Positions 1-24,185 are shown, numbered from the stretch's first letter. The stretch is 64,000 bases of DNA from an uncultured delta proteobacterium (GCA_963850305.1 CAWKKR010000002.1:1-64000); one strand, 5' to 3'. Made by a program: numbers and translations. The notes: a model not told the origin generated them from the sequence alone.

Positions 1-980
1 CGCAGCGGGAGCCAGAAACGTCATAACGAGCGGCCGGGTCGGCGGCTCCGCGATGGGGCGACTGCATCGCCAACGTGTCGCCGTCCGAAAAGTCTCCGCC
101 GCGAACGGCCCGCCTGGACGTTTCCACGTGATTGGCGCAATTGACGCACGGAACCTGGGGATACGGATCCACGTACCAATCGAGCACCCATTCGAGGACA
201 TTTCCTGCGAGGTCGGACTGGCCGTATTTGCCGTCCCCCTTCGGCGATTCGGACCCGACCGCGTTCGTGCCACCCTGGACACAAGCGGTGATTGGATAGC
301 GTTCACCGCCGTAATTCGCGTAGGTGCAATCGACCATCTCGGCGCTCGGCGGGTCCGACCACGGGTAGACACGCTGTTCGCTCCCCCGCCGCTGCGGCGT
401 ACTCCCATTCGACCTCGGTCGGCAAACGTCCGCCGTCCCAAACACAAAATGCGAAGGCTTCGTACCACGTGATGCAGTTGATCGGCCGTGAGTCGCCGGC
501 TCCTGGTTGTTCCGTCCAGGTCTGCGTCTGAGCGTCGCACTGTATCGCGCTCGCGAGCGCGACTCTGTCGGCCGGCAGATCCGCGGTCCACGCCGCGTCC
601 CATCCGGGATCGGTCGGATCGTTCGGATTCTTCCCGCGGCCCGGCGCGATCATTCCCGGAGAGTACGCCGCTACGAAGTTCCAAATGTCCCCACGGTGAT
701 CTCGTAAGTGTCGAGCCGAAAGTCGCTCACGGTAGCAGGAAATTTCGGGTCGTTGGTGCGGTTGAAGGTGCCGCCCGGCACGACGGACGAACTGCAGCAG
801 TCAGTGTTCCCGTTCGGCCCGCACTGGGTGCTAGCCGCGGCAACTCCTTCCCGAACCGGCGCCGCTGTCTGTCGCGTCCCCGCTGGAGTCCCCTGCCGCG
901 CCGCCGCCGCACGCGGTGAACAACCAGCACGCCAAAGGTATCGCGAACCACAGACACTCGACTCGCCCCGTGGCTTTCAT
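1..980 (-). pseudogene. Formylglycine-generating-enzyme (SUMF1/FGE-sulfatase) domain lipoprotein, frameshifted, runs off the window start
   Basis: Motif RPINCITWYEAFAFCVWDGGRLPTEVEWEYAA in ORF 303-653. Upstream pieces (VPGGTFNRTND..FRLDTYEITVG) lie in other frames. Lipoprotein-like start at ATG 980. Confidence 0.75.
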
Positions 981-1448
981 GGTGCCCCCAAGAGTTGCCA
1001 TCCCGTTGCGTCAAAGTTAGCACGAGGCTTCGAACCCACCGGGACGTGGTGATGAAATCGGTTCCTTGTTCAACTCGGTGGCCCTCATGGAAAGGGCGCG
1101 GCTCCTTTGCAGCGGCGAGCGACGCGAGGGCGATCGTGAATGGAACCAAATCCGCGGATTCGCATCACCAGCTTCGCCTGGCACTCCGACGCGCGCATCG
1201 CGCGGGACTCTCGGCGTGCGCGTCGGAACCCCGCGTTGCACCGCCGCCGCGAAGCGAAAATATGTAACAGCTTCCAGTGCTTGGTCGTGCCCCCGGTGGT
1301 TCCGCTCAGATGGATCCACACGCTCGCGGAAATCGGAGCACGGTGGACTGAGTGCTGACACTCTGAGATACTCCTCGGGGGTCCTCGGGGCCTGCACGCA
1401 GTTTTAGGGACGCGCGAGTCCACTGACGCGCGTCTTGGAGGTACGGGG

Positions 1449-2712
1449 ATGTGCATTTCGCGACGACGACCTTGGGTTGAATGCGCCCTCTTGTCCAGCC
1501 TGCTTCTAGGGTGCAGTGGTCGCACCAGACGAGCGACGACGACCCAGCCGGCGAACGCGCGGGCGACGCCAGCACTGCGCCAGATGCGAGTCCGCCGCCC
1601 ATCACTCCAGGCCAATCCGTCGCGACGGCGCCTACATCAACAGCCACGCTCGGTGCTCCTTCTGCAGCGAAGCTGACAACGTGTGCGCCGGGCGGAGCGG
1701 TGGCGAATGCGGATGCTGACTGCAGGTCTGCACCGCTCGCTCAAACGACGACGTTCCCTCCGATGCAGTCGGTGGGACTGGGTCCCACAGCAACCGTTAC
1801 CGCCGCCGCGCTATCGGGAGGCACGCTCTACGCGGGGTTCGAATGGACCACGTGCGCTCACGCAGGCTGTTCGACGTCCGCTGGGGTCTACCGAACCGAC
1901 GGCAGCACCGGTTGGCAAACCGTGTTCCCGAACGACGGCCGCGTCATACTGGCCACGTCGAGTTCTTCCGCCCTCTGGGTGCGCACGACACCCCACCTCG
2001 TAGCGGCCGGCGAGCCCATTTACCAGGCGGTCGCGAATTCGTCCACCGCCGTAACCGCGTCGACGATTTCGACTGCGGGATACGCGACCGGGCTCGCACT
2101 CACGCCGACGTCCTTGTTCTCGATGACTTCCGCATCGGACTGGTCCTCGTCTGCACTGTACCGCGACGACATGGCCGCGAACGGCCATTGGGGCTCGTCC
2201 GCGCCCTTGCTCCTAATCCAAGGTCCCGCCGCTTCTCTCCGAACAAATGGCCAAGCGCTCGCGTGGGCCGAGGGTCTCGCCGGAGATACCATCGTGGTCG
2301 GCGACCTCACGGGAAATGGCCTCGATACGTCGTGCTGCTCCCTTCCGGTTCGGAGTACACGTCGCTGGAAATCGGGAGCAGCGCCGCCTTCGTAGCTTAT
2401 AATCAGGAGAGCCCCACAGCTGGAGCAATCTGTGCTCTCGATCTCCAGACGGGAGCGGCTGCCGTGACCCTCGCCCTAGGCCCGGGGATCCAAGTGTGCC
2501 ACATGGCCGTCAATTCGACGCGCCTGTTTTGGACCCAAGCGGCGGCAGAAGGTTCGCCGTGCACACAGGTCTGGAGCCAACCGTTGACCGGAGGAATGCC
2601 GAGCATCCTCGCGTGCAGCGCGGAAACCCTCGGGGATCTGCTCGTTGCAAACGACACCGCCGTATATTGGATCGACGACCAGGTTCGCCACATAGATCCG
2701 AGCACCTTGTGA
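1449..2712 (+). pseudogene. Secreted lipoprotein with repeat/propeller-like body, split over three frames
   Basis: Lipobox-like LLLGC in ORF 1449. The body continues in ORFs 1481 and 1843 (AVNSTRLFWT, VANDTAVYWID). Confidence 0.5.
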
Positions 2713-2781
2713 TCAGAGCGTGGAAAAGCAAGGCAGGGGCATCGTTGGGTTCGGCAGTTTGATGCCGAAAGTGAGGACCAC

Positions 2782-3255
2782 ATGGGCTATCGCATTTCTC
2801 TGAAAGTCGCCGTCATGGCGACCACGCCGTTACTGATGGCGCCGCTCTGCAGGTCGGTCTATCCGAACTGGCCCGTCAGCCCACCGGCGCCTTACAATGT
2901 CGACGCGAGTTTCAACGCGACGAAGTTTCGCACGAATGCTCAATATGTCGAAACGAACGTGATGGCTTCGACACATTCGAACGGTGTGGTCGCGCTCGGC
3001 CTTGCCGCCGACTGGGACAATGTCGAACCATGCGACAAATGCCCCGGTGGCAATTGCACGAATCCCCCCGTGAGCTGGCCGGTGGGTTGGCCGACTGCCA
3101 ACGACGTCTCGGGTCGGCACCTCGAGACGCTCGGCGCGGATTCGTACCGATGCAACTTCAATTTCGCGTATCTGGACGCGTACCTCGACACACACGTGGA
3201 TCCTTACGGGTCGCGCACCGCATACCGAAGTTTCGAAATTCAGCTCGCGCCGGAG
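2782..3255 (+). pseudogene. Hypothetical secreted protein, 3'-truncated by the 101-bp element
   Basis: GAGGA RBS, ATG and signal-like N-terminus. Plausible coding sequence stops exactly at the repeat junction (..EIQLAPE|IRSSKP). Confidence 0.55.
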
Positions 3256-3356
3256 ATCAGGTCCTCCAAACCCGTCCTGGCCGTCCCCCGCCGGTCCCCG
3301 CCGTCTCCGCGCCGGGCTTGAGCCGTCAACGCCGGGGATTTCCCGTATAATGTGAG
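3256..3356 (-). repeat. 101-bp element copy 1 (putative IS91/ISCR oriIS or mini-element)
   Basis: ATCAGGTCCTCCAAACCCGTCC...GGGGATTTCCCGTATAATGTGAG, identical to copies 2 and 3. Confidence 0.95.
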
Positions 3357-3421
3357 ACGGCGTCCCGGACGACACGTGCTCGGCGATTCGGTGGAAGCCG
3401 CGCTCAAGGACGGCGTGGACA

Positions 3422-4528
3422 TCATTCCGACCACTGCCCTGATCCGCCGCTGGGACGCGCCACGCCGCGTCGGGGATACCGAAGCCGGAGAGCGATTGCG
3501 CGGACGGATCGCGCTGCTCGAGAGGCTTGCGGCGTCGCCGAGCGCTCGATGAACCGACGACGCGCTGACGACGCGCCCTTAGGTTCGAGCCCCTGCACGT
3601 CTCGGTCGGACGTCGCCGCTTTGACCTCGTACCGAACGTGTAATGCCGTCGTATTCGACTCCGTCTCGAGAGCGAGCTCGACGCGGTGACCGTCTTTCCA
3701 CTTCCACTCGAGCCGATATTCCGCCTGCTTCGTGGAGATGCACTGGAGCACGCGACTCGCGCACGCCTCGGGCCGAGAGACGCGGCCTCCGAAGGCCGCG
3801 CCGTAGTGCTTCTCGAGGTCTCTTTTCACGTCGCCCCAGCGCGTCAGCACGACGTTGTCCGAGGCACCTGCGTCGAACGGCGCGACCACCTCGATCGCAC
3901 AGAGTTTGCCCTGGCAGAACTCGACGTCCGTCTCGCCGGCAAAGGACATATTGGGCGGGAGGCGATTGCAAGAGCCGTCTCCGTCTTCGTCGACGGCCCA
4001 GGCCCCTGCGATTCGGTCGCAGCGCTCTTTCGCGGCGGAGAACGAATCGTCGAAGCGGTAACCGAGCGCCCCGAGCGGCGCGGAATCCGTGCTGGCCGCG
4101 CCTATACGCCCGCCGCCGGCGGAGTAGACGATGCACACGCCGCGAAAGCCGTGCAGCGAACGAACGCCCATGGACCCGGTTCCGTTGGACGCAAAGCCGG
4201 TCCCCGTCACGGCGTCCGCGGCCGATACGACGACCCCGTCGCAACCTTGCAAGGCGGCGGCTCTTCGAAGCTCGTCCATGATCGCGGCCGAGTCATCGGA
4301 TGAAAGGAACTCTTGTCGTGCTTCGACGAAGCCGATCTCTTGGTACGCCCGCTGCGGAGGCCCCGTGAGGAACACGTCCACGTCCGCCGCCAGCCGCGGG
4401 GACCGGACTTGGGCGGTGGCATCCGTCTGCGTGTAGCTGACCGCGGTGCCGCATGCCGTGAGGGTGAGAGCGATCCCGCTCAGACACACGTTCACGTTCC
4501 GTCCAAAAAAGCTGCGCGACCGACCCAC
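3422..4528 (-). CDS. Hypothetical lipoprotein
   Basis: Lipobox LTAC, segment PPQRAYQEIGFVEAR..ELRRAAALQGCDGVVV and several paired Cys. Exact ends are uncertain. Confidence 0.6.
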   Translation of the reverse strand: MGRSRSFFGRNVNVCLSGIALTLTACGTAVSYTQTDATAQVRSPRLAADVDVFLTGPPQRAYQEIGFVEARQEFLSSDDSAAIMDELRRAAALQGCDGVVVSAADAVTGTGFASNGTGSMGVRSLHGFRGVCIVYSAGGGRIGAASTDSAPLGALGYRFDDSFSAAKERCDRIAGAWAVDEDGDGSCNRLPPNMSFAGETDVEFCQGKLCAIEVVAPFDAGASDNVVLTRWGDVKRDLEKHYGAAFGGRVSRPEACASRVLQCISTKQAEYRLEWKWKDGHRVELALETESNTTALHVRYEVKAATSDRDVQGLEPKGASSARRRFIERSATPQASRAARSVRAIALRLRYPRRGVARPSGGSGQWSE

Positions 4529-4771
4529 GTTTTCGGCCGAAGTTAGCCGATTGCACGAACCGCCACAATAGACGCCGAATCGTCACGAACGCGCCTAGGG
4601 GCGAGGCCGCGTCCATGGACCTACGACGTCAGGTGGCGCCGAGACCCCACAATCAAGCGGACTTGGCTTCGATTTCCGAGCGCCCGTTCGCCAGTTCGAT
4701 CACGTCGCGCAGGCGGTCGTAGGCCTTCCTGAGTTGGCCCGGGACGATGTGCATGAGCGCCACCGGTGGAG

Positions 4772-4872
4772 ATCAGGTCCTCCAAACCCGTCCTGGCCGT
4801 CCCCCGCCGGTCCCCGCCGTCTCCGCGCCGGGCTTGAGCCGTCAACGCCGGGGATTTCCCGTATAATGTGAG
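4772..4872 (-). repeat. 101-bp element copy 2
   Basis: Identical to copy 1. Confidence 0.95.
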
Positions 4873-5830
4873 GCTCGGACGTCGCGTTCGGCATCGTTCT
4901 TTCTCGTCCGTGGACCGTCGGTGAACTCGTGCGCGAGTACGGCGGCGTCGCCGACGACGGCATCGACGCGCGGGTCGTCGACCGACTCGTGTCGCCCGAG
5001 CACGCGACGTCGGAGCGCGATCTCGTCGTCGTCACTTCCACGCGCCGCACCGCCGACGCCACCGGCTTAAAGGCGTACTCCTCTGTCAACGCGACGTCGC
5101 AGCGCGCTGTCCGGACGGACGTCGCTGGGTCCACGATCACGCGACGTGGGTCGTCGCAAGCCTGCTCGAAGACGTCGCAGGCCCGCGCGCCGCTCCGTTC
5201 GTGCACGCGGCGGCCTTCGTCGACGAGGCCGCCGCGCTCGACCCGACCGCGACCGTCCTTCGCGGCGCGGTCGTGCATGCCGGCGCGCGCATCGGCGCTC
5301 ACACCGTCATCGGCGAAGGCGCGGTCGTCTACGGCCGCACGCGCATCGACGAACGCGTGACGGTCGGCCCACTCGCCGTGATCGGCCGTCCGGGATTTGG
5401 TTGGGCCGCGGGCCCTGACGGCGCGATCATCCGCGTCCCACAGCTGGGCGGCGTGATCATCGAAGCAGACGTCGAGGTAGGCGCGCTCGCGACCATCGAC
5501 GCCGGCACCCTCTCCCCGACCATCCTGCGCCGCGGCGTCAAACTCGACGCGCACGTGCACGTCGGCGCACAACGTCGAGATCGGCGAGCGCACGATCGTC
5601 GCGGCTCAGGCGGGTTTCGCGGGTTCGGCGCGCATCGGCGCGGGCGTCTCGGTCGGGCGGCCAAGCCGGCGTCACGGATCACGCGACCGTCGGCGCAGGC
5701 GCGCGCATCGCCGCGAAGAGCGGCGTGATCGGGGATGTCGCTCCGGGCACGGTCGTGGCAGGATACCCCGCGATCCGAGGATGGAATGGCTTCGAGCGTG
5801 GGCGAGGCTCCTCGGACAGAGAAAGCGCAC
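4873..5830 (+). pseudogene. lpxD: UDP-3-O-acylglucosamine N-acyltransferase, start lost at the repeat, several frameshifts
   Basis: Hexapeptide repeats and [43 protein letters not shown]. Followed by fabZ and lpxA. Confidence 0.85.
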
Positions 5831-6302
5831 GAAGACGCGAACTCCGAAGCGCCGCATCCAGATCGACATCGCGAAGATCCTGGCAGATCTTGCCGCACCG
5901 GTATCCGTTCGTGATGGTCGATCGCGTGACCGATCTCGTCGCCGGTGAAGAGCATCTCGCGGTCACAAGATGGTGAGCTACAACGAGCCTTGGTGCCAAG
6001 GGCACTTCCCGGGCGTCCGATCATGCCCGGCGTGCTCATCATCGAGTCGCTCGCGCAGATCGGCGGCATCCTCGCTTACGCGAGCGAGCCGTTCGACGCG
6101 ACGCAGAGCCTCATGTACTTTCTCGGCATCGACAAAGCGAAGTTCCGGCAGGCCCGTGATCCCCGGCGATCGCCTCGATCTGTTCGTCGAGGTCGTGCAC
6201 CACCGATCGAACGTGTGGAAGATGCGCGGCGAGGCGACGGTGGACGGCGCGCTGTGCGCGCAGGGCGAGCTCCTCGCGTCCATCGTCGATCGCGACGGCT
6301 GA
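5830..6302 (+). pseudogene. fabZ: 3-hydroxyacyl-ACP dehydratase, frameshifted
   Basis: [48 protein letters not shown] and PVIPGDRL spread over several frames. Confidence 0.9.
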
Positions 6303-6313
6303 GCGGGCGCGTC

Positions 6314-7090
6314 ATGACCGACCCGGTCAACCGTTCACTCGACGGCCGTCGTCGACCCGAGCGCGCGGCTCGCGAGCGGAGCGTGGTCCGCTGTCGTACG
6401 TCGGTCCCGGCGCGGTCATCGGTGAAGGGACGGAGCTCGTCGCGCAGGCCACGGTGCTCGGACCGTGCCGCGTCGGCAAGAACAACCGCGTTCCACCCGC
6501 ACGCGACCCTCGGCGCGCCGCCGCAAGACCGGTCTTGGTCGGGCGAGCCGACCGAGCTCGTCGTCGGCGACGACAATCAATTCCGCGAAGGCGTCACCGT
6601 CCATCGCGGCACCGTGAAGGGCGGCGGCGTGACGCGCATCGGCTCGCGCTGTCTCTTCATGGTCGGCGCCCACGTCGCGCACGACTGCACCGTCGAGGAT
6701 CGCGTGACCCTCGCGAACTACACGAGCCTCGGCGGCCACGTCCAGCGTCCGCGAGCGAGCCGTGCTCGGCGGGCACGTCGCGGTCGCGCCGTTCGTCGTC
6801 GTCGGAGAGCTCTCGTTCGCCGCCGGCGGCGCCATGATCGAACGCGACGTCCCGCCCTTCGTCACCGTCCAAGGCGATCGCGCGCGCGTCCGCGGCCTGA
6901 ACCGAGTGGGCCTGATGCGCGCCGACGTCCCCGAAGCGTCTCGCGAAGCGCTGGCGTAACCGCGTATCGAATGCTCTTCCGCTCCAAAGAGCCGATGGCG
7001 CTCGCGGTGCACGCCGTCGAGCTAGAACTGGGGCACGATCCGTACGTGAAGCGGCTGGTGGAGTTCGTCAGGGGGAGATCGAGCGCGTGA
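6314..7090 (+). pseudogene. lpxA: UDP-N-acetylglucosamine acyltransferase, frameshifted
   Basis: LGAPPQD..VGDDNQFREGVTVHRGT..GAHVAHDC..LANYTSLGGHV, then DVPPFVTVQG..GLNRVGL. Confidence 0.9.
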
Positions 7091-7131
7091 GTTGACGCCT
7101 CCGGGTAAGGTGGACGACGATTCGTCCGAGA

Positions 7132-9144
7132 GTGGAAGAGGAGCCGGTCGAGAGCGGTGGCGTTACGCAATATCCCAGGCGGCGCGTCCGGAATGCGATC
7201 GTCTTTGGTTGCGCGTCGTGGGCCGTCGCCATTGCGTTGTTCATCCCGTGGGGACGGGCGCTGCGCGGCCCCTTGGATCGGTTCGTATTACGAGCAGGCT
7301 TGCGGCTCACGTTCGACTCTTTCGAGCTCGGGTGGGGCGCGGTAACGCTCCACGGGGTTCGGTTCAGTTTGGCCGACACGAGCGGCATCGACGGCACCGC
7401 GCGGAGCGTCCACGTCACGTGGAAGCCGAGGCGCATCGACGCCACGGACGTCCGCGTCGGGTTCGTGGGCGCGCCCTTGGATGACGTCCTCGAACTGGCG
7501 AGATGGGCGCAGCAGCACCGCGCAGCGCTGTCGGTCCCCATTTTCGCGAACAACGGCGGCGCGCGTTCGACCCGGACGCTGGATTCGGATCGCCAAGTCA
7601 CGGTCACGGCTTCCGGATCGGCGTTCGTCCTCACGCAAGAGCCGAACTCGCCGGTCATTGCGTCGGGGAGCTTCGGCTCGAACGGCGTCGAGGTCCTCGT
7701 CGGCGATCCAGCGTCGCCGTCGTTTCGAATGGAGGTTCCCCGCACGTCTCGGAGCGTCGTCCTCACGGTCGCACCGACCCCCCTTCCCGAATTCGCGCGC
7801 GCCATCGGAGCGGACGCGACGTCCGAGAAGATCCTGATCAGCGGGCGCGCGACCCTGGAACCTCCCGTCAGCCTCGAGGCTCCGATCTCAGCTCGCGTCG
7901 AAGGTCGCGTCGAAGGCTGGACGCTTCGGCCACCGCTCGAGCTCGAAGGCCTCTCGTTCGGGCACGTCGCGACCTTTCGAACGGAGGTCGAAGCAACACG
8001 CGTCGCGTCGCAACTCACCCTCCGAAATGGCCGTGTCGACGTCGGTGACAGCCACTTCCACGTCGAGGGCACTCTAGGCAAACAACCGCGAGACAGTCGC
8101 CCCAGCGGTAACGGCCTTCGCGTGCTTGGTGCAATCTCGTGTCGCGTGATCGCAGACGCTGCGGCAACCGCTCCCGCCGGATCCGGGCTCATCACGGTTC
8201 TAAACGGAAGCCACGCCGAACGCCGAACGAGCGGCTGGATACCGGTTTTTACCGGTTTCTCGGGCGACGGCGCGCTCGACGCGTTGCGGCCTGGCGGGTG
8301 GCTCGTCGGATCGAATTGCGGGATCGTGCCGCTCGCGCTCCTTCGAGGCGAGGCGCGAGAGATCCTGGAAGCTCGGCTGGGTCGCCCTCCGAACAACTGG
8401 ATGAGCGTGTTCGGACGAGATTACCCAGGGTTCACGTTCTCGGACAACGTCGGTCCGGGTCCGAAGGTTCCGCCCGCGGAGCTCACTCCGAATCCGGTGA
8501 CCGCGGAGATCAGTCCGGCGGAGCGTCGCGGGTATGTCGGAGAGCTCGTCTCCTTCGACGTGGTGGTTCACGCCAATCCTGCCATGGTTCGGGGAGCGTG
8601 GACCGCTGCGTGCGCGGGCCCGGCGAGGTTCGCGTCATCGGCGGTCGCCGTTCCAGGCGAAGAACATCGTCACCTCGAAGCTCTCGTCGAACCATGGCGC
8701 CCCGCTCCTGACGGCGGCCTCCGCATTGCCCAGCCTTACTCCGGAACCCACTTCCCACCCGTCCTTCAGCACACGTTGCCAATCGTTCCTCTCGACTACG
8801 AAGAGCTCGCTCCGGTGTGGGTCGACCGCGGACGTGAAGAAGCGCTGCCCGAGCTCAGCGTCTCTCAGCGCGACGACGAGATGGTCGTCCGGTACCAACC
8901 GAGGATCACCGATGCTCGGTTTAGCAAGGTCCGTGCGATTCTCATCCGAAGCAACGGGACCAATCTGCTCTACGTCGGCGCCACCATCGTTGCCGTGTCG
9001 GAAGGCGGCTACCCGAAGGAGGCGGGTGCGGAGACGTGGGCCCTCGCGTTTCCGGCGTCAGTTTCTCGTCCCGTTCGAGTGCTCGTGTCGGAGCATCACG
9101 AGGATGCCTGTGAGTTTCGCACGGTCGAACTCACGGTTCGGTGA
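7132..9144 (+). CDS. Hypothetical membrane-anchored protein
   Basis: 670-aa ORF with an N-terminal TM helix and a beta-rich body. No recognisable family. Confidence 0.5.
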   Translation: MEEEPVESGGVTQYPRRRVRNAIVFGCASWAVAIALFIPWGRALRGPLDRFVLRAGLRLTFDSFELGWGAVTLHGVRFSLADTSGIDGTARSVHVTWKPRRIDATDVRVGFVGAPLDDVLELARWAQQHRAALSVPIFANNGGARSTRTLDSDRQVTVTASGSAFVLTQEPNSPVIASGSFGSNGVEVLVGDPASPSFRMEVPRTSRSVVLTVAPTPLPEFARAIGADATSEKILISGRATLEPPVSLEAPISARVEGRVEGWTLRPPLELEGLSFGHVATFRTEVEATRVASQLTLRNGRVDVGDSHFHVEGTLGKQPRDSRPSGNGLRVLGAISCRVIADAAATAPAGSGLITVLNGSHAERRTSGWIPVFTGFSGDGALDALRPGGWLVGSNCGIVPLALLRGEAREILEARLGRPPNNWMSVFGRDYPGFTFSDNVGPGPKVPPAELTPNPVTAEISPAERRGYVGELVSFDVVVHANPAMVRGAWTAACAGPARFASSAVAVPGEEHRHLEALVEPWRPAPDGGLRIAQPYSGTHFPPVLQHTLPIVPLDYEELAPVWVDRGREEALPELSVSQRDDEMVVRYQPRITDARFSKVRAILIRSNGTNLLYVGATIVAVSEGGYPKEAGAETWALAFPASVSRPVRVLVSEHHEDACEFRTVELTVR

Positions 9145-9187
9145 CCTCTGGCTCACTTACGCGAGCGCCGCGCCGCACCGGGCGGCC

Positions 9188-9375
9188 GAAAAATTCAGGA
9201 CGGAACGCCTAGTCCGGTTCGGCGCGCACGAAAAATCCAGGATGGACCTTCCCCCTGGGTTCGAATCGAACAAAAGTTTCAGGATCGGACCTTCCCCCCT
9301 GGGTTCGAATCGAACGAAAGTTTCAGGTTGAACCTCGCCCCCGGGTTCGAATCGAACAAAAGTTCAAGATGGAGG
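9188..9375. repeat. About 42-bp tandem repeat, about 4.5 units
   Basis: Units start at 9188, 9230, 9272, 9316 and 9358. Consensus AAAGTTTCAGGATGGACCTTCCCCCTGGGTTCGAATCGAAC. Confidence 0.85.
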
Positions 9376-9433
9376 GTAGACCCACGAAAACTAACCCACG
9401 CCTTTTCACTCACTTCACCTCGAACAAATGGGA

Positions 9434-9534
9434 ATCAGGTCCTCCAAACCCGTCCTGGCCGTCCCCCGCCGGTCCCCGCCGTCTCCGCGCCGGGCTTGAG
9501 CCGTCAACGCCGGGGATTTCCCGTATAATGTGAG
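9434..9534 (-). repeat. 101-bp element copy 3
   Basis: Identical to copies 1 and 2. It truncates a minus-strand ORF starting at 9601 (MTRLERLIRALGVDELARRLG). Confidence 0.95.
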
Positions 9535-10610
9535 AACGACCGAGCCGCCGCGCGAGCTCGTCGACGCCAAGGGCACGGATGAGCCGTTCGAGTCGCGTCA
9601 CGACGCACGCTCCGGCTGTGAACGCGCGATGCGTAGCGCAGTGATGATGTCAGCGGCGAGCGCGTCTTCGCCACGCGAGCGGCACAACGCCACTACGTCG
9701 CGGAGCTCGAGCCCGCCGACGTAGCGCGGCGAGATACCAGGCACGCGGACACGCGCGAGACCGAGCAAGAGGTCGGCCTCCACGATCGCGACGCCGTCCG
9801 CGTCACGACGGATCGGAACACGACCGTCCGAACACACGATCGCCAACGCGCTCTTGGCGCGCAGCTCGGCCGTGCTGCGGGTAGATCCTCGCTTCGACGT
9901 CGTGTGCAAACGACGACTCCTTCGCTTCGTCACGTCGGACCCCCTTTTTTCGGGGTCGACGCGCTCGCTCGGTCTATTTGCCCGAGGCCGTCACCAGGAC
10001 GACCACGGGGATGGTCAGGGGGGCGGGGCTCGACCGTGCGCGGTGCGCGCGACGGGAGCCCCGATGGTGGGCCGCCGTCGCCGTCGCCATCGGCGCCGCT
10101 GGACGGCGCGGAGGAGCGTCGTGCGACTCGTGCGACTCGTCGTGCTCGTCGGCTCGATCGTGAGCGCCGAGCGCCACGCAGGACGCGCGGCGTGGTCGCT
10201 GTGAGCCGGAGTCGCCGAGCGTCGCGCGACAGAGCGCCGCGAACGTTGCGAGCGAAGGCCAGGGCACGACGTGCCTGGACGGCTACGCGGCGAGCGCTGG
10301 CGACGTCCTGGAGGCACGTATCGGCGTCCTCGCCCGGGACGGGGAAACGCTCGTCGAGCCGCAACTCCGGCAGCTCGCGAGCGAGCGCGTCGGCGAGCAG
10401 AATCGCGTCCAGATCCGCGGGATCTGGCTCGATAACACCTGATATATCGGGTGTTGGCGGCGCGACGACGCTCGGTGTTTGACCGAGCGGGGGGGAATGC
10501 TGTACGTTTGAGCCGCCCCTGAAATGGGGAAGCGGTAGCGAGTCGTTTTCCATCGACTGGATCTCCTCGTCGGCCCAGCCACACCGCCCTCTTCGTCCGA
10601 CCAAGACCAA
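9535..10610 (-). mobile_element. Fragment of a satellite/prophage-like early operon (three small overlapping ORFs)
   Basis: ORFs 9930-10610, 9598-9933 and truncated 9535-9601 overlap by GTGA start/stop junctions. They are divergent from an XRE repressor and share a GADGDGDGxPP motif with ORF 22323-23027. Confidence 0.5.
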
Positions 10611-10695
10611 GGGCGGCGGTGGTGTATCCGCGATTTGGCGGGCGATGCGCCCGCGCGATGCGGGCAGACGCGCCCGCGGGAAGCAGGATTGATCG

Positions 10696-10723
10696 AACCC
10701 TGCGCGACTGTCCAGGGTTTTTT
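10696..10723 (+). terminator. Possible intrinsic terminator
   Basis: AACCCTG-N10-CAGGGTT followed by a T run. Confidence 0.35.
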
Positions 10724-10748
10724 ATGATCAGTGTGCTATCCTTGCCTC

Positions 10749-11054
10749 ATGAGCAGCGCTGACGGCCATCGGACGGGCCGCCCCCTCGGGCGCCGGGAGA
10801 GCCCTCGCCCACTGATCGACGATCATCGCGCCACGATGCGCGACCTTCGCAAATCGCTCGGCTTGAGCCAGTCCGAGGTGGCGGCCGCGATCGACAGCGA
10901 TCAGGCCGTCGTGAGCAGGATCGAGCGGAGTCCCGACGTGCTGCTTTCTAGCCTTCGCAGGTACGCGAGCGGGCTCGGGGCGCGCTTCGAGGCCGCGTTC
11001 GTGCTCGCGGACGGCCGGCGCGTCGTGGTGATCGACGAGCCGGCGAGCGAGTAA
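10749..11054 (+). CDS. XRE-family HTH regulator
   Basis: MRDLRKSLGLSQSEVAAAIDSDQAVVSRIERSPDVLLSSLRRYASGLG. Confidence 0.85.
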   Translation: MSSADGHRTGRPLGRRESPRPLIDDHRATMRDLRKSLGLSQSEVAAAIDSDQAVVSRIERSPDVLLSSLRRYASGLGARFEAAFVLADGRRVVVIDEPASE

Positions 11055-11100
11055 CGCATTTCACCGTGCGGCCGTCTGGAGTCTCTGTTCCGCCCCGCGA

Positions 11101-11126
11101 TTGTACGTTTGACGTACAACGTACAA
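11101..11126. promoter_or_regulatory. Inverted-repeat operator upstream of higBA
   Basis: TTGTACGT-TTG-ACGTACAA, plus a second ACGTACAA half-site, just before the higB start. Confidence 0.65.
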
Positions 11127-11143
11127 AGCGCTAAGCCTACGAC

Positions 11144-11419
11144 GTGATTCGGTCGTTCCGCTGCAAGGACACGCAGGCTCTCTACGAGGGCAAGCGATCC
11201 AAGCCGTTCGCTTCCGTGCGGAGCGTCGCCGAGCGGAAGCTACAGATGCTCGACGCTGCCACGACCCTCGGCGACCTAGCCACGCCAGGCAACCACCTGG
11301 AAGCTCTCAAGGGCGACCGAGAGGGTCAGCACTCGATCCGAATCAACGGCCAGTTTCGGGTTTGCTTCCGGTGGACCGACGCCGGACCCGAGGACGTGGA
11401 GATAGTCGATTACCACTGA
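11144..11419 (+). CDS. higB: HigB toxin (plasmid maintenance killer protein family)
   Basis: MIRSFRCKDTQALY..PGNHLEALKGDREGQHSIRINGQFRVCFRW..VEIVDYH. Confidence 0.95.
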   Translation: MIRSFRCKDTQALYEGKRSKPFASVRSVAERKLQMLDAATTLGDLATPGNHLEALKGDREGQHSIRINGQFRVCFRWTDAGPEDVEIVDYH

Positions 11420-11492
11420 TATTTGCTGAGTCCGTTCACCATTTTATTTAGCGAGATGCTCTCGCCCCTCTGCGGAGAGGAGTTTTTTATAA

Positions 11493-11825
11493 ATGTCTAA
11501 GTTGAAGAACGGGATGCGCCCCATCCACCCCGGAGAGATCCTCCGTGAAGAGTACCTCGCGCCGCTCGGCATGAGCGCGAACGCCCTGGCGCACGTCTTG
11601 AACGTGCCCGCCAACCGCGTCAGCGGCATCCTCTCGGGGCGCCGCGCTGTCACGGCGGACACTGCGCTTCGCCTCGGCCGCGCTCTCGGCACGACGCCTA
11701 CGTTCTGGCAGAACCTCCAGGCAGCGTACGACCTGCGCGTGGCTGAAGGTGAAAGCGGGTCCGATCTACGGACAATCCGCCGCGTACAGCATCCGGCTTC
11801 GAGCTCCGCGGCGAAGCGGGCCTAG
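11493..11825 (+). CDS. higA: HigA antitoxin
   Basis: PIHPGEILREEYL..RRAVTADTALRLGRALGTTPTFWQNLQAAYDL. Confidence 0.95.
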   Translation: MSKLKNGMRPIHPGEILREEYLAPLGMSANALAHVLNVPANRVSGILSGRRAVTADTALRLGRALGTTPTFWQNLQAAYDLRVAEGESGSDLRTIRRVQHPASSSAAKRA

Positions 11826-11850
11826 CCCCGCCACGCCAACGCGGGCCCAC

Positions 11851-14150
11851 CTACGGGGGAAGCGAGTCGAGCATCTTCCCAACCAAGCGCTTCAGGAGCG
11901 CATCGCCGCTGAGGTGTTCCTTCGCGTACCCGTCAATGATGGTCTCGCGCATCAAGTCTTCTGAGACCGCGATACACCCCGTCCGCACGTGGTCGAGGCA
12001 CGCGGCGGCGTCCTCGAAGAGCTTTTGCACGTCCTTGAGCGAGAGGTAGGCGATGCCAGCGGCTAGTCCGCGCCCGGTGTCGTCGAGGGCGATCCGCGGC
12101 GACACCACAATGACCTTCGTGTCGCGTGCCGGCGGCAAGTCCTTGTCGTGCTCGTCGAGCCATGTGGGATGCGCGTGCGCCTGGCGAACCGTCTCGTAGC
12201 TGATGGGGTGCCCGGGTTTCTCGTCGGATTTAGCCTCGAAGACGTAGCGCTGGCCGTCTTCGGTCCACCACAGGGAGTCTGGTGCGCCCTTCTTCTTCTT
12301 GTCGTAGCTCTTGGTTTTGAAGCCGAGCATGCGGCCCAGCGAGGTCAGGCCGCCCTGGAACAGGGCCGCCGTCGTCACGGAGACGTCCTTGCGTACCTTC
12401 TCGACGTGGTCGCCGAATTTCTTCCCGCGAAACGTCCAATCGTTCAGGAGGTCGATGACCTCGTCGACGCCCATGGGAGCGCCGAGCGCCGGTGCCGTCT
12501 CGGGTCTGATGAAAGACAGCGAAGCGAGCCACCGCACTCCGGAGGCGAGGTTCGACGCGAGGTCGACGTGTTTCTGGAATTGGAGCTTGTGCGATTCGTT
12601 CTTCGACAATCGATACGCCATGTCCGCGGCGAGCGCCGCCTGGTACTCCCAGAATGCGCGGTACGGTTTCAGCTTTGGGTCGCCGAGCTGGTCGGTGATT
12701 TTCACGGCCGTGTGATGAGCCTGGGAGTAGTCCGCTCGCCAGAGCTGGTAGACGAACAGCGTCTCGTGCTCGGCCGTTGCGGCGAGCGCGGCAGTCTCCT
12801 CTCCGAGGACTCGACCCAACTGCTTCGTGCGGGCGCGTAGCGCCACCTCCGCGTCGTCGTTCCAAGCGTCGCCGTGCTCGAAGAAGTCCTCCAAGAGCTT
12901 TTCCGAGGCCGCCAGGTCGAGGCCGTTCGATACCTCCTGTCCGAGGTCGAGCTCGGCCTGGAGCTCCGGGTGGAGGCCCTTGCTGTTCGTGCCTAGGGCA
13001 ATCCAGCCCGTGAGGTCCTTCCCGAGACAGAGAACGAGCGCGTAGTCGTTCTTGTCGCGGGTGCACCTTCCCATCGCTTGCGTCAGGCGGACCCGCATCC
13101 GGTTTCGCACGACGGAGTAGGCGTTGAGCCGGTTTCTCATGAACGCCTCTTGCAGGTTCATCACTGCCGGAGCGTTCACCAGGACCATGCGCCGACAGTC
13201 CTCGCCGGGAAGGTCGATTCCATCGTAGCGGTTCGTCAGCACGAGCGCGGTCGGCACCGTCGAGTGCGTGAACTTGTCGAGGCTCTCCTCGACGTCGTCG
13301 GCGTTAAGCGTCGTCACCCCTCCGCTCCGAAGGGTCCTGGCGTGCTTGGAGGCTTCCTTCTTCGTACCCGAGACGATGACGAGCGAACGCGACTCACTGA
13401 CCGCACGGGTGTAGCAGTGGTTCCCAGCATCCTTGGCCATCAGGTGCGGGAACAAGAATCAGGCGGCGCCCCGTGTTCCCTTCCGGGACGTCCGAAGCCT
13501 CGATAGCCTTGATTTTCTGAACGCCGAACATCCTTTCGAGGTCGCCGTCCGCGCCGAGTGTCGCCGACATATAGAGGCGGTGATCTGCGCAGGCGAACGT
13601 CGAGTGGGTGTCCGTCGGAGGATGGGGCCGGAACAAGAACGAGGAGAGACGTACACGTTGCACGCCGCGAGGTGGTTCTTGAGCACGCGCCACGAGTAAC
13701 GAACCGACTTCGGCGCGTTGTCGGGACCGCATGTGCGGTCGGAAGCCGCAAGAGCGCATCGAGTTTTGATGCGTACGCGGGGAGCGGGATGAGGTCGACG
13801 TCACTCAGCGAGGCGTTGCCCTTCGCGTGTCGGAGCCCCGGATTAATCCAATCGCCGAAGAAAACCCACCGCACCGGAGCCGTGGAGCGTCGAGCTCGGA
13901 GCGGTCGTCGCCGGCGAGGCGCGCCGCGGCAAACGACGAGCCGGTGCCCGAGTCCGCGCGCACGCCGACGCGCGCAGCGTCGCGCTCGACGAGCAAGCGA
14001 CGCAAGGCCCAGAAGGTCATCCACCGTGCCGGCGGACGCGACGTCAAGCAATCGGTGCTCTACCTGCGCCCGAGCTCCACAAGCGGCTCGCGGTGCGCTG
14101 CGCCGAGCTCGGCGAGACGCTCTCCGACTTCGTGGCGGACGCCGTGACAC
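11851..14150 (-). pseudogene. SF2 (DinG/Rad3-like) helicase with C-terminal PD-(D/E)xK nuclease; 5' part frameshifted and truncated
   Basis: YMSATLG, RYDGIDLP and QAMGRCTR helicase motifs; PDSLW..VFEAKS nuclease motif. No Walker A region seen. Confidence 0.75.
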
Positions 14151-14332
14151 GCGCTCTCGCGTAAATCGCGCGGCACGGGCTCTGGATTTCCATCGTTCGT
14201 CTCGACTCGAGGCTCTCTCCGGGATAAGCGTCGGTGCTTGGAGGAGGAGAGACATAAACAAAACCGAAGATCACGGCAAAGACCGATGGCGTTCCACCAG
14301 CGGATTCAGGCAAAGACGTTACCTGGGGAGAG

Positions 14333-14752
14333 ATGCACGCAGGCGACTGCGTCATGGCCGCGGGCAGCACGGTGACAATCTACTCAGATGGCAACGCCAA
14401 GTTCGAAGCATCCGTCTGGACGAACCACACGCATTCGGGCGACACGTGGCAGCACATCCTCACGTTCCTCGATTTCCGTGGTCTCGAGCTGTTCAGCAGC
14501 CCGACGCTATACGGCCCGAACCACATGAATGACGGCAACCCGCCTCCGCACTACAAATGGGGCCCGGTCTGGTTCAAGTTCGATCCGGCCAATTCGATGC
14601 TGCTACCCAAGCGCAGGCCCGCGGTTGGTGCTGAGCGAAAGGCGCCGACCAACTTCACACGAACCACGACACGCTTACGTTCCGCCCGAGACACGCGGAG
14701 GAGCTCCGCGTCCGCTGCGCTCGCGAGCGCAGGAGCGTCTCCGACGCTGTGA
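14333..14752 (+). CDS. Small hypothetical protein, probably frameshifted at its ends
   Basis: Trp/aromatic-rich plausible core (IYSDGNAKFEASVWTNHTHSGDTWQH) and GGAG upstream. Confidence 0.45.
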   Translation: MHAGDCVMAAGSTVTIYSDGNAKFEASVWTNHTHSGDTWQHILTFLDFRGLELFSSPTLYGPNHMNDGNPPPHYKWGPVWFKFDPANSMLLPKRRPAVGAERKAPTNFTRTTTRLRSARDTRRSSASAALASAGASPTL

Positions 14753-14994
14753 CGGCCGCGCTTTCTGCCTGGCTTCGCTGATTCGGGCTCGGGTATTTCC
14801 ATCGTGCTGCGACGCGCCTACCGTGCGTCGATGCCCCGCCACCTGAAGGTCTGCGAGGAGCAGGCCGAGCCCCCCGAGCTCGGTTCGCGCGAGCTCCCGA
14901 TCCGCGTGCTGCCCGAGCATCCCTGGTTCGCGGAGCGGCGCTGTCACGCGATGATGGCGCCGCTCGTCATCGACGCCGCGACGTGGCTCGAGAG

Positions 14995-15095
14995 ATCAGG
15001 GCCTCCAAACCCGTCCTGGTCGTCACCCGCCGGTCCCCGCCGTCTCCGCGCCGGGCTTGGGCCGTCAACGCCGGGGATTTCCCGTATATTGTGAC
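14995..15095 (-). repeat. 101-bp element copy 4, putative oriIS of the adjacent transposase
   Basis: 95/101 identical to copies 1-3. Its outer end lies about 190 bp past the transposase stop. Confidence 0.9.
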
Positions 15096-15184
15096 CAATT
15101 CCAACGGACCTCGACGCACCTCCGCGCTGCGGGTCGCTCGGGAGAGCGCCTGCGGCCGCCCTGGTCGGCTGCTGACTCACTGCG

Positions 15185-16916
15185 TCACCAGTCGTCGGGC
15201 GGGGGCGGGTCGAAGTCGTCGGTGGGGGAGCGGGCTCGGGCGACCGTGGGCGCGGCGAGTTCGAGGCCGAGCTCCCCGAGGAGCTGGCGGGCGCGGTCGG
15301 CCTCCGTCACGACCTCCACGAACTTCAGGCGGCCGCCACACGGACACGCCAGGGCATCGACGTCGTGAACGCGTCTTTAGGAGGGTCGCCCAGTCGATCC
15401 TCCAGGCTCCCGACGAGTACCGCGCCTTGCCAGGCTCGAAGGGTGCGCGCTTCGGCGGAGCGAAGAGGCGTGCCGGGTCGAGCACCGCTTCCGTGGCGCC
15501 GGGAGGTACGGGGAGACGAGGCGCGTCGATCCCGTGATCTCCTTCCGCCGCCATGGCCCTTGTCTTTGCGACCACCTGGATGGACGGTGGCTCGGTCACG
15601 GCAGGCCCGATACTCCCGCCCACTTCGGTGGTCGTCGTGCACACGGAGTTCCCGGCCACGGTGGCCGGCGGCTCCGGCACCACGCTCTTCCTCCACGACG
15701 AGTGCGGGCCGAGGACGCCATGGAATCGTAGTAGCGGATGCCGCGGCGGGGGAATCAAGGCCGAAAGGCGCGCGAGTAGCTCGACCGGATCCATCACGCG
15801 GTGGGTTTCGCCGCGACGCCATGGGCGTTGCAGTTGGTACGCGACGCGGCCGTCCCGCGTCATCGAGAGCCGCTCCAGGCTGAGCGGGGCTCGCGTGCAA
15901 TAGCGGAGCAGCTTCTCTCGGCCCGCCCGATCGTGTGCTTCTATGCGGACGCCCGCGTGCAGGTTGAAGCCGAGCGACTCGGTGCCGTACTTTCCCTTGG
16001 ATCTGCGGGGCGCGGTGGCGTCACCGTCGCCGCCGGGTTGCACGAGCTCGGCGAGCCCTCGGGCGTCGAGCCGGACGAGCCCCTTCTGGCTGAGCGACGT
16101 GCTCACGCAGGCGTCCATCGCACTCGGGTCCGTCGACTCTACCCGTTCATGGTTGTACTCGGCGAGCAGTCCCTTCCGACGAAGCCAGGCGACGAGCCGC
16201 TTGTAGACGCGCTCGATCACGTCCCCGAGCGCGAACGAATCGGGTGCTGGAACCGCGTGGAACGTCGCGCGCTCGTCCTCGTCGTGGCGCGTGAACACCC
16301 CGTCGATAACGGTGGCGTGGACATGGCAGTTCAGGTTCAGCGCGCCTCCGAAACGGTGCTGCACCGAGACTGCACCGCCCTGACCACCCGAGATGCCGAT
16401 CTCGACCGCCCTCCTCCGGTACCACGCGAGCGTCTCCTCCATGAAGATGCGGGTCAGCGCCGTGAACGCCTGCGCGTTCGACGCCAGCAAGAATCTCAGT
16501 TCGAACGGAACGCTCAGGACCCACTGACGCACGGGAGCGTTCGGGAGAACTCGATCCGTCAAATGTGCCGCCGAGTTGCACATTCGCCTCGCGTTGCAGG
16601 ACGGGCACAGCCCCCTCATCTTGCACGAAAAGGCCACGACGATCTGGCGGTGACACGCGCGACATTCGGCGCGTCCGAATCCGTGCGCCAGGATCCCGCA
16701 GCGCAGGTAGGCGCGTAGCTCGCGCTCGACGTACGTCGGGAGCGGGCGATCGTGCTTCTCGCGGGATTCAGCGAGGAACGTCTCGAGGTGCTCGGCGACC
16801 AGCCGGTAGAGCAACGTCTCTTCGGGTCGGTGGCGCTCGTAGCCACGTTGCCGGCGGTCGACGGAAGACCCCGCGAGGTCGGGCACGACCGGTCTCGACA
16901 GCGAGGACCGGGCCAT
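15185..16916 (-). CDS. IS91/ISCR-family rolling-circle (HUH) transposase, +1 frameshift near 15375
   Basis: Zn-binding CGILAHGF..CRAC..FSCKMRGLCPSC, HUH motif NLNCHVH, LLRYCTR and LLRFHGVLGP. The C-terminus RVHDVDALACPCGGRLK continues in another frame to TGA at 15185. Confidence 0.92.
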
Positions 16917-17247
16917 GAACGAAGGTCAGCGATTCCCCCGTGTCTCGGGTGCCCTGACGGTGGCCAACGCCGGGGTCGCGATGGCGAGCCGCCACGACGA
17001 CCTCGGAGAAAGTCGCGTGCGAGACGGGAAACGGCGGCGGCGAACTGAACGAGGGAGGGATCGCGCTCGGCGAGGGCGTCGTCGACGGAGAGAGCTTCCC
17101 GCGATGCTCGTCTCGTGCCGCCCGTGCTCGACGACGGGGCGTCAGCGACGTGACAACCGGCCAGGCAGATGGACGCGGCGCGTCGAAAAGCTAGCGTCAC
17201 GGAATTCCTCCATTGCCTGGGCTCGCGTAGCTGCTGCGACGGCCGCC

Positions 17248-17275
17248 GAGTTCATAATGTCCCATTACCGGACAA
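17248..17275 (-). other. Degenerate dif-like (XerC/XerD) site
   Basis: Minus strand TTGTCCGGTAA-TGGGACA-TTATGAACTC has the TAA-spacer-TTATG layout, with a 7-bp spacer instead of 6. Confidence 0.4.
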
Positions 17276-17499
17276 CGTCACCGCGGCGGGCTCGGGCGCC
17301 GCACACATTCCCCTACACGCCCTAATCTTAGCGCGATAAGGTTGGACGGTCAAGGGGCGATCAAGGGCAATCTAGAGCCTTCAAACGACGCTGTTCGACA
17401 TCGAAACGCGAGGTAGCAAGCGAGGCTTAAACGTGGCTCTGAGCGTGGCTCAAGCAAGGTAACAAGCGTGGCTTTTTGTGGCATTTTACCACGATTTTT

Positions 17500-17672
17500 C
17501 CATGGATCCGGCCGAGATCGCGATGGGCGCCGTCGAGGGCATGAACAACAAAGCCCGCGTCACCACGAAACTCGCGTACGGTTTCAGGACCTACGAACAT
17601 GCAGAAATCGCCCTGTTCCACAGGCTCGGCGCGTTACCCGAGCCGCCGTGGCTCACCCACAGATTCTCGTGA
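17500..17672 (+). pseudogene. ISL3-family transposase C-terminal remnant
   Basis: GAVEGMNNKARVTTKLAYGFRTY..LPEP..LTHRF. Confidence 0.8.
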
Positions 17673-18303
17673 GGAGGCGTTCATAGCAGTCTCTCGAAGC
17701 AAGGTGCGAACCACGATGCCGGCCAGCCGCTTGAGATGAGGCGCGGGGCACGCTGCTCTACGTGCTTCCCGCGCTGCTTGGGGAGCGATCCATCGACGTC
17801 GGGATGCCAGTCCGGTCCATTAAGAAAGTCCATGCTCGATTGACGCTCTTCGACGACACCGTGGCCTCGTCTTTCTCGACTTTCCAGGCCGCGGTAGCAG
17901 CAATCGCCGACGCAACGCGTCGCCATCAATCTCGAGCCGCAGGTGCCTGCCAGCCTATGCGCTCGAGATGTCTCCGCGCGATCTCGAGGAACGCTCGGGC
18001 AGCGGGTGAGACGCGGCCGCCGCTCAAGTGCACTGCATAGAGGGGTCGCGCTGGCGGTGCGTATGCATCGAGCACCTGGTTTCTTTGCCGCCTTCGGACC
18101 AAAGAGTAACCAAGGAGCTGCCCGTCATCCCCCCAATCGCCCCGCGCATGATCATTAGCTCACGCAACGTCAGCGGGCGGCGCTCCGTCGGTTCGTCGTC
18201 GGCACCATCGCCGTCGCCGCGCGTGACGACGGCCGCCCGCGCGTCGGCAAGCTCTCGGGGAGACAGCCACGCCCGCACCGGCGCAGTGAGCGAGGATCTC
18301 ACC

Positions 18304-19473: not shown

Positions 19474-19616
19474 GGGCTGATGACGATGTGACGCTCGATG
19501 ACGATGAAAACCCCCGTCCCCCCAGAAAATGCGGCACGTACAGTGGTGGGACTGAACAGGAAATTTCCCGCGTAAGCATGTTTCATCGTCATCGATCGTC
19601 ACATCGTCATCAGCCC
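19474..19616. repeat. 36-bp inverted repeat (35/36) around a 71-bp spacer, putative replication origin
   Basis: Arms 19474-19509 and 19581-19616, built of GATGAC-like units, immediately after the replicase stop. Confidence 0.8.
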
Positions 19617-23930: not shown

Positions 23931-24185
23931 TCTCTTCGCGTCGAGCACTTGGATCAGCACGGTGCCTCCAAGCGGTCCGCCAGATCTTCTCACCGGTGAG
24001 ACGTTAGACCGGGTGCGTTCAAGCAATCAGCCTGAGTTCGAAGCGAGTCGGACGGACTGCCGCGACCCTTATCCGCCGCCACTACGAGCGGTGAGGGGAG
24101 CGGTGGGATCGATGGACGGCGGCCGGACGTTCGCGGCTCGCCCGATGCCCGCGCGGCTCGCCGACGTCTCGACGCTGCAGGCGAG

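Follow-up and report, generated by a model that had tools for sequence, protein, structure and literature searches.

Transposase-less oriIS-side ends of an ISCR/IS91-type element at joints between unrelated DNA fragments in a deltaproteobacterial genome

The first 64,000 nucleotides of a contig from an uncultured delta proteobacterium (GCA_963850305.1, CAWKKR010000002.1:1-64000; this whole stretch is referred to as the window) contain four copies of a repeat of about 100 nt, which are separated by unrelated pieces of DNA. The fourth copy adjoins a gene for a transposase of the ISCR/IS91 type. What is this repeat, and were the pieces between its copies captured by a rolling-circle mechanism? 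In an initial annotation, which was deduced from the sequence of the window, units of cargo DNA plus an oriIS-like repeat were proposed to have been stacked behind the HUH transposase, giving an integron- or CRISPR-like archive. The analysis of the complete genome, which consists of 11 contigs (6.26 Mb; the window corresponds to C2:1-64000), suggests a partly different answer: the repeat is the end of an insertion sequence (IS), whose transposase-less copies mark joints between DNA fragments.

A repeat finder assigned all four copies to one direct-repeat family with a length of 105 nt (3252-3356, 4768-4872, 9430-9534 and 14991-15095). The identity is 100% for copy 2, 98% for copy 3, which is identical from 9434 onwards, and 93% for copy 4. 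An alignment that included 50-nt flanks gave sharp edges, and the resulting modules comprise positions 3253..3355, 4769..4871, 9431..9533 and 14992..15094, all on the + strand. The start-to-start distances are 1516, 4662 and 5561 nt. Similarity opens at GAGATCAGG; copy 3 starts with GGAATCAGG in its place. The first three copies, designated orphans because they are not accompanied by a transposase gene, close with ...TATAATGTGAG or ...CCCGTATAATGTGAG; copy 4 reads ...GTGACCAATTCC and then runs on into the body of an IS. Compared to the orphans, to which it is 95% identical, copy 4 contains five internal substitutions and a changed last base, and these are the six substitutions counted previously. 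Chance cannot account for three identical copies longer than 100 nt. The coordinates, identities and common orientation given in the initial annotation are borne out, and a comparison of the intervals with each other confirmed that they are mutually unrelated. Also in agreement with that annotation, no direct repeat indicative of a target duplication flanks the three orphans or the three full IS copies described below. The repeat analysis of the window reported no inverted repeat of at least 40 nt. A miniature inverted-repeat transposable element was rejected as a candidate, as the repeat has neither terminal inverted repeats nor a target-site duplication.

The transposase gene next to copy 4 (15177..16916, - strand) contains an open reading frame (ORF) of 579 residues, and copy 4 ends 82 nt from its stop codon. 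The protein matches the Pfam families PF04986 (Y2_Tnp, 89.8 bits) and PF14319 (Zn_Tnp_IS91, 60.5 bits), in both cases with scores over the cut-offs. Its top NCBIfam match is the ISCR element clade Ia family transposase, with 334 bits versus a cut-off of 925; the NCBIfam model of IS91 yielded 83-86 bits versus a cut-off of 125. Because both NCBIfam scores are below the curated cut-offs, the protein is classified as a predicted distant member of the ISCR/IS91 type and not as an equivalog. Its translation contains an HVH triplet and the stretch LLRYCTRAP, which are a putative HUH motif and a putative region of the catalytic tyrosine, an assignment made by eye.

Three Y2_Tnp genes exist in the genome, namely that of the window and those at C6:8697-10439 and C7:14341-16083. 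An alignment of the three loci showed that their similarity sets in precisely at the left boundary of the module (C2 14992, C6 8513, C7 14157) and extends through the gene. The repeat lies about 80 nt past the stop codon, and the IS terminus is located about 184 nt from it. The left end of the IS reads GAGATCAGG...; its other end is located about 770 nt upstream of the transposase gene and has an unrelated, GGACTG-rich sequence. The elements C6:8502-11212 and C7:14145-16892 are alike over 2.7 kb (87.7% identity), and the repeat forms the terminal 103-105 nt of all three full IS copies. Moreover, module and IS body diverge together: C2 and C6 are 95% identical in the module and 89-91% identical across the IS. 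The repeat is therefore identified as the terminal module, with a length of about 100 nt, of a 2.7-kb rolling-circle IS of the ISCR/IS91 type, on the side where IS91-family elements have oriIS (PMC13181058). The Pfam domains, the terminal position in three full copies and the co-divergence hence argue for the assignment to an IS91/ISCR-type HUH element that had been made initially.

Two of the three IS copies, those on C6 and C7, are predicted to encode an intact transposase, while the copy of the window is defective. The stretch that it has in common with the other two spans 14992..17219 (- strand). Both the C6 and the C7 protein are complete, with ...WATLLKRVHDVDALACPCGGRL... at their end; compared to these, the window protein leaves the frame after WATLLK, and its last ~60-65 residues are out of frame. 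In addition, the window copy parts from C6 and C7 at ~17216-17219 and lacks about 500 nt of the ter side. These are replaced by a sequence in common with C9:109180-110079; next to it comes a stretch that may be the end of a further IS. Relatives of the transposase were collected from other species (64 loci); they are mostly ~34-49% identical over longer matches, with short segments reaching at most 64%, and a search of these loci with a profile of the end module gave nothing beyond a single match at E=0.34.

A BLAST search of the genome with the repeat gave 24 matches, and a profile derived from them gave 27 matches at E<1e-8, which are located on 8 contigs. The copies on C2 are found at 3253, 4769, 9431, 14992 and 120704 (all +) and at 109532 (-), those on C9 at 84458, 86847, 91424, 95241 and 96984 (all +), together with an inverted partial copy at 94874. 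C5 contains copies at 4472, 117126 and 398986 (+) and at 5524 and 8284 (-), C8 at 39333 (+), 27797 (-) and 71304 (-). Two further copies are on C1, two more on C7, and a partial one is on C3. Fourteen pairs are within 6 kb of each other, compared to 0.65 expected pairs, with none of 5000 random placements giving more than 5, and 7 of 10 adjacent pairs have the same orientation. Many copies are located within 30 kb of contig ends. Five copies of the window type are 100% identical, the copies on C9 and C5 reach 98-99% among themselves, and diverged subfamilies have 75-83% identity with the window type. The three orphans of the window match the last 100-105 nt of the C6 and C7 elements with 100% identity and contain no IS sequence beyond this; to copy 4 they are only 95% identical. 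A remnant of 13 nt of the IS body is present beside the module at C9:86950. The modules are clustered, but they are spread over 8 contigs and no orphan copies adjoin the intact C6 and C7 elements, which does not support an array tied to the transposase of the window.

Outside of this genome, the element was not found in 40 other genomes of the order, including those of the same genus (0/6); three gave only GC-rich matches of 31-35 nt. A third module subfamily (~80% identical) was observed on two metagenome contigs from one sample (L094:1710-1817 and L095:11-114). These have a common left part and diverge after ...TATATTGTGG, which is the right boundary found in the genome; both contigs are too short to show arrays.

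Are the orphan ends simple insertions, or do they mark joints? For an answer, the 800-nt flanks of all 27 matches were compared with the genome. A paralogue that spans the element, which would represent an empty site, was found in the genome for none of them (0/27), and for 11 matches homology stops at an element edge. It ends at most 6 nt from the left edge of seven matches (C2:3253, C5:8284, C9:84458, 86847, 91424, 95241 and 96984), among which C5:8284 and C9:84458 represent one duplicated joint. It opens at the right edge of five matches (C3:41995, C5:5524, C5:398986, C8:27797 and C9:95241), two of which are weak, one being a minisatellite and the other a 71% match.

Two joints of the window illustrate this finding. 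The left segment (1..3252) is 99.4% identical to C5:6-3259 and ends with ...CGCGCCG at the left edge of the first orphan. At this point C2 and C5 part: on C2 the element follows, on C5 an unrelated sequence that is found nowhere else. Of the three gene truncations named in the initial annotation (ORF 2782, lpxD and the ORF at 9601), the first two are confirmed. The ORF starting at 2782 had been described as cut at this junction, and indeed its C5 paralogue reads past it. Likewise, the start of lpxD is cut at copy 2, as had been stated: homology to lpxD opens 18-59 nt right of this copy (4872-4931), and the upstream part of the gene is not present on its left side. In related genomes, no empty allele was detected for window positions 1-18000, where only the lpxD-fabZ-lpxA part (4872-7073) of the copy-flanking DNA has a counterpart. 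The other matches to relatives are short and multi-copy or at the level of single genes (parts of 310-810, 11228-13312 and 15693-17679), and none of them crosses a junction. As empty sites are lacking and the homology of the flanks stops at the element edges, the orphan ends are interpreted as joints between unrelated DNA and not as simple insertions, and this interpretation holds wherever it can be tested.

The capture of DNA fragments, which the initial annotation had postulated, is judged to be real in this genome, and the evidence comes from contig C9. Here, an interval of 1,642 nt (C9:95343-96984) fills the whole gap between the elements 95241-95344 and 96984-97086 and is 99.8% identical to C8:1696495-1694854, with ~3 differing positions. 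The stretch on C8 comprises the 3' end of a hemD-like gene, a spacer and the first ~447 codons of an 889-residue nirB-like gene; it is cut inside both genes, and its neighbours on C8 are a sigma-54 activator gene and moeA. The hemD-nirB arrangement is conserved in 5/5 genomes of the same genus that were searched, which argues that the C8 locus is native and that the truncated C9 copy is derived from it. Both edges are base-exact. The C9 piece opens with (GG)AACGAG directly after ...ACATTTT(GG) and closes with ...AACCCCG directly before GAGACCAGG, and C8 continues with other sequence at both edges. Furthermore, the DNA left of the C9:95241 element is a 315-nt copy of C8:1185989-1186303 with 100% identity, which ends with ...GTCGCCG at the element edge.

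These comparisons also help to define the junctions. The bases that directly precede the element belong to the flank, as shown by four paralogue comparisons. They read GCCG (C5 versus C2), GCCG and CCCG (two sites on C8) and GCCG (C8:298932). Among the elements with an intact left terminus, CCG is found directly 5' in 7/16 cases versus a background of 3.7% (binomial P 8.5e-7), and CG in 10/16 cases versus 15.2% (binomial P 2.2e-5), both P values being weakened by the partial non-independence of the copies. According to these counts, CCG is preferred directly 5' of the element. The right edge is fixed within 1-3 nt across the subfamilies and reads ...TGAG, ...TTGG, or ...TGA followed by the IS body. 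According to a hand tally, the DNA right of the module begins with G, followed by A or G, in 24/25 flanks. On the ter side, the similarity of the C6 and C7 elements stops at ACCG and ACTG. As a side observation, the right-hand DNA starts with GAG, GGA or GAC, similar to the first bases of the element, in the donor comparisons, of which there are only three. Two partial copies of different subfamilies (C9:94874-94937 and C3:41995-42055) both open near module position 42, after an internal GCCG, and may have been cut at this target-like site.

How could such joints arise? We favour, with moderate confidence, an explanation in which transposase-less ori-end miniatures similar to those of IS801 make the joints by one-ended or aberrant rolling-circle capture, with an additional contribution of recombination. 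The orphan ends would be served in trans by the C6 and C7 transposases. A nick would be introduced at the (G/C)CCG|GAGAYCAGG junction, and replication would proceed toward the DNA on the transposase side of the module. Termination at loosely defined sites would cause neighbouring DNA to be copied and re-inserted, i.e. one-ended transposition, and recombination among the many copies of the module would add rearrangements. The expected outcome would be clusters of mostly co-oriented orphan ends at joints of unrelated and often truncated DNA. We infer the transposase as the maker of the joints, and likewise the polarity of the units and any stacking at resident ends.

Several findings weigh against this mechanism. 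At the three internal joints of the window, the element is preceded by GGTG, ATGG and TCGA, and not by CCG. The inner end of the orphans (...TGAG or ...TTGG) is unlike the (G/C)CCG flank, and hence does not follow the tetranucleotide rule of IS801. Single-strand DNA folds of two subfamilies, calculated for either strand, do not surpass those of shuffled sequences (z -1.0 to +1.0). A profile search detected no element at either of the C8 donor sites; given these clean donors, simple one-ended transposition needs the later loss of an insertion, or an insertion that took place only in a sister cell. Between the second interval of the window and the native lpxD locus, identity is only 80%, whereas the orphan end of this interval is 100% identical to the active IS. 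This contrast implies that the interval was not recently copied from this chromosome, and either it would come from another organism or its end would have arrived later. The duplicated block C5:8284-10122 = C9:82715-84555 consists of left flank plus element, which is opposite to the polarity assumed above. Finally, all joints are known from assembled contigs alone.

A related scheme, in which the module is an HUH recombination site, could avoid the problem of the clean donors: circles consisting of an ori end and copied DNA would be inserted where a resident ori end is nicked. Arrays would grow by an integron-like stacking and could take up fragments of the host chromosome, with no element left at the donor. 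This scheme is unlikely to be correct. If it were, the genome would contain a Helitron-like bacterial system for the shuffling of fragments that is still active, as judged by the intact transposase, the identical ends and the fresh captures of 99.8-100% identity with identified donors.

Among the alternatives to transposase-mediated capture, we regard it as doubtful that plain miniatures were inserted and that recombination, deletion and unequal crossing-over among the 100-nt copies generated the joints afterwards. The near-identical copies within the subfamilies (100% for the window type, 98-99% for C9 and C5) are possible, albeit short, substrates for recombination; the duplicated block of left flank plus element and the second interval, which is much older than its orphan end, are also in line with such a history. 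Moreover, most IS801 fragments in Pseudomonas syringae genomes are credited to reorganisations and not to one-ended transposition in the part of Bardaji et al. (PMC3189936) that deals with them. Recombination alone, however, cannot account for a copy of hemD-nirB that is flanked by two ends on C9 when its C8 counterpart is still intact and element-free, and among the 27 matches no pair of paralogues, empty or filled, was detected.

The precision of the right edge within 1-3 nt in all subfamilies, which includes the two metagenome contigs, is reminiscent of an independent landing site: the true ori end of the IS would then open at CCAATTCC, and the IS body or other DNA would have been inserted into a 100-nt module at a ...T|GA nick. 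The G followed by A or G in 24/25 right-hand flanks fits such a site, as does the fact that most copies have no IS body and that the genome contains only three Y2_Tnp genes. It is nevertheless quite improbable, as the module is found at the same place in all three full IS copies and beside the C9:86950 remnant, and co-diverges with the IS body. Furthermore, the (G/C)CCG left flank loosely resembles the ter-side ACCG and ACTG, which agrees with the IS91 rule only for a module that is part of the IS, and the multiplication of the module itself would be left unexplained. A mis-joining of contigs via the short repeat, finally, is hardly credible. It could be suspected from the many copies less than 30 kb from contig ends and from the common 3.25-kb sequence with which C2 and C5 open. 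Yet repeats of 1.6 kb with 99.9% identity are resolved inside contigs, which suggests reads far longer than 105 nt, and a chimeric join would not produce a captured copy that has base-exact edges and differs from its donor at ~3 positions.

The arrays look like by-products of transposition and not like a selected archive. An array organised behind the window transposase, as originally envisaged, is not supported in view of the frameshift in this copy, the loss of its ter side and the sequence of its end, which is 95% identical to the orphans, compared to 100% for the C6 and C7 elements. The postulated order of cargo followed by ori is not supported either, as the IS91 paradigm predicts ori followed by the DNA on the transposase side. 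With respect to the integron- or CRISPR-like archive, the content is decayed or truncated, as exemplified by lpxD-fabZ-lpxA in several frames, and there is no sign of an order. An integron cassette array was rejected, since the array is not accompanied by an integron integrase; a tyrosine recombinase 8 kb away scores 30-48 bits against integron-integrase models with cut-offs of 265-435. The repeat does not have an attC-like fold (z -1.0 to +1.0), and a CRISPR array is not compatible with spacings of 1516, 4662 and 5561 nt and the lack of an Rfam match.

Gene capture by IS91 and ISCR elements has mostly been deduced from resistance loci, where the donor belongs to another species and the event is old. 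ISCR elements are reportedly described by Toleman et al. (2006) as IS91-like capturers of adjacent genes. For the genome studied here, all components appear to be present together: intact transposase genes, identical orphan ends, and a capture from the same genome with 99.8% identity and base-exact edges. Such a set of donor and copy would make the mechanism of capture directly testable. A simple scheme does not explain why the donor sites are clean, why the inner breakpoint of the module is fixed, and how the duplicated block of left flank plus element arose.

The individual parts of the proposed mechanism are known, namely one-ended transposition from IS91 and ISCR and miniatures from IS801, with Helitron-like capture as an analogy. 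For IS91-family elements, the sections of PMC13181058 and PMC3189936 on transposition describe initiation at oriIS beside a target tetranucleotide, replication through the element, frequent faulty termination, and no duplication; according to the former, 82 bp of the ori end of IS91 plus the tetranucleotide are sufficient, and no target duplication is made. IS801 yields right-end miniatures of 229, 360 and 679 nt, which account for 26.3% of the IS801 insertions, and at low frequency carries fragments of the gene beside its far end, as stated in the corresponding passages of PMC3189936. The initial view that an array of this kind is undescribed has therefore to be corrected for its parts, as both IS801 miniatures and the recruitment of gene fragments are in print there. 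The miniatures reported for Pseudomonas syringae pv. phaseolicola in these passages (Bardaji et al. 2011) are likewise transposase-less, contiguous pieces of the ori end that are supplied in trans, make no duplication and recruit fragments of adjacent genes. Compared to these descriptions, the module studied here is shorter (~100 versus 229-679 nt), its inner end is unlike the target tetranucleotide, it is present in ~24 orphan or partial copies of several subfamilies, and every testable copy is located at a joint of unrelated DNA and not within contiguous DNA.

For ISCR1, ISCR2 and ISCR8, the relevant portion of PMC13393415 credits IS91-like 'common regions' with the capture of adjacent genes. 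The element of the window resembles ISCR with respect to its top NCBIfam match (clade Ia), the location of oriIS downstream of the gene and the unrelated neighbouring DNA. In contrast to what is outlined there, the score of 334 bits is far under the cut-off of 925, no resistance genes are present, and the recurring unit is a bare ori end and not a whole or truncated transposase gene. With IS91, IS1294 and IS801, as summarised in the portion of PMC13181058 that covers them, the element has in common the functionally distinct ends, a tetranucleotide at the ori end, the missing duplication and the mobilisation of adjacent DNA upon failed termination. Different from this summary are the flank, which is (G/C)CCG on the transferred strand and not CTTG, GTTC or GTCC, and the transposase, which has 580 residues and a long upstream region; also, the element is known from sequence alone. 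Eukaryotic non-autonomous Helitrons, as depicted in the cited part of the work on Helraiser (PMC4778049), are similar in their HUH rolling-circle mechanism, the key role of the start end, loose termination and decaying transduplicated gene fragments. The RepHel enzyme architecture and the host domain differ from the case depicted there, and the element is not a member of the Helitrons. Integron cassette arrays, too, consist of co-oriented repeats between unrelated pieces of DNA, but the pieces found here are gene fragments and not cassettes. In the literature that was searched, supplements not being covered, we found no description of clustered, co-oriented orphan oriIS ends at the joints of a fragment mosaic in bacteria, nor of a donor-copy pair within the same genome.

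Concerning the gene content of the window, the first ~24 kb are mobile DNA, and ordinary chromosomal genes follow. The 3.25-kb repeat that opens C2 and C5 probably extends past both contig starts, and a 380-nt part of the left segment (359-739) has relatives of 68-75% identity on C5, C6, C7 and C9. Neither the rest of the genome nor relatives contain a match to interval 1 (3356..4768, ~1.4 kb), and the sole long ORF of this interval (3422-4528, - strand) has no Pfam or NCBIfam match. Interval 2 (4872..9430) starts with the copy of lpxD-fabZ-lpxA (4890-7090), which is 5'-truncated and frameshifted. The copy has 80% identity with the native locus C8:1592082-1594148 and 74-76% with genomes of the same genus; compared to the native protein, its lpxD part is spread over three frames. 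An unannotated stretch follows, and left of the third orphan there are direct repeats (9174-9364), which consist of three imperfect copies of a 63-nt unit with start-to-start spacings of 42 and 86 nt and the common core GGGTTCGAATCGAAC(A/G)AAAGTTTCAGG. Interval 3 (9534..14991) contains HTH, toxin, helicase-domain and DUF6294 genes. These are an HTH_3 gene (10731-11054), a gene for a HigB-like toxin (11144-11419, PF05015), an adjoining HTH_3 gene (11493-11825) that is a candidate for a HigA-type antitoxin, an ORF with a helicase C-terminal domain as its only Pfam match (11851-13455, - strand) and a DUF6294 gene (14333-14752).

Beyond the defective IS copy, ~200 nt before position 17511 recur on C1 and C5 with 77-80% identity, and this stretch looks like the end of another multi-copy IS; the sequence directly after 17511 (in the region 17305-17700), read by eye, presumably encodes the C-terminal part of an ISL3-type transposase. 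Further downstream are a PrimPol-domain gene (19610-22042, 810 residues) and a tyrosine recombinase gene (23046-24026), which suggests that the array may be inside an integrative island. No tRNA gene was called in 1-30000, no Rfam family was detected in 1-26000, and a promoter in the module (TATAAT) was discarded, since no sigma-70-like site was called in 3100-5100. A second array (C9:84458-97086; loci L091 and L092) consists of five co-oriented orphan ends and the inverted partial copy. Its intervals contain an IS21-type pair (genes for an IstB-like ATPase and a Mu-transposase/rve integrase), ORFs without known identity and the two fresh copies from C8. A comparison by eye revealed a 7-bp hairpin (GACGGCC...GGCCGTC) in the C9 subfamily of the module, which the window subfamily does not contain.

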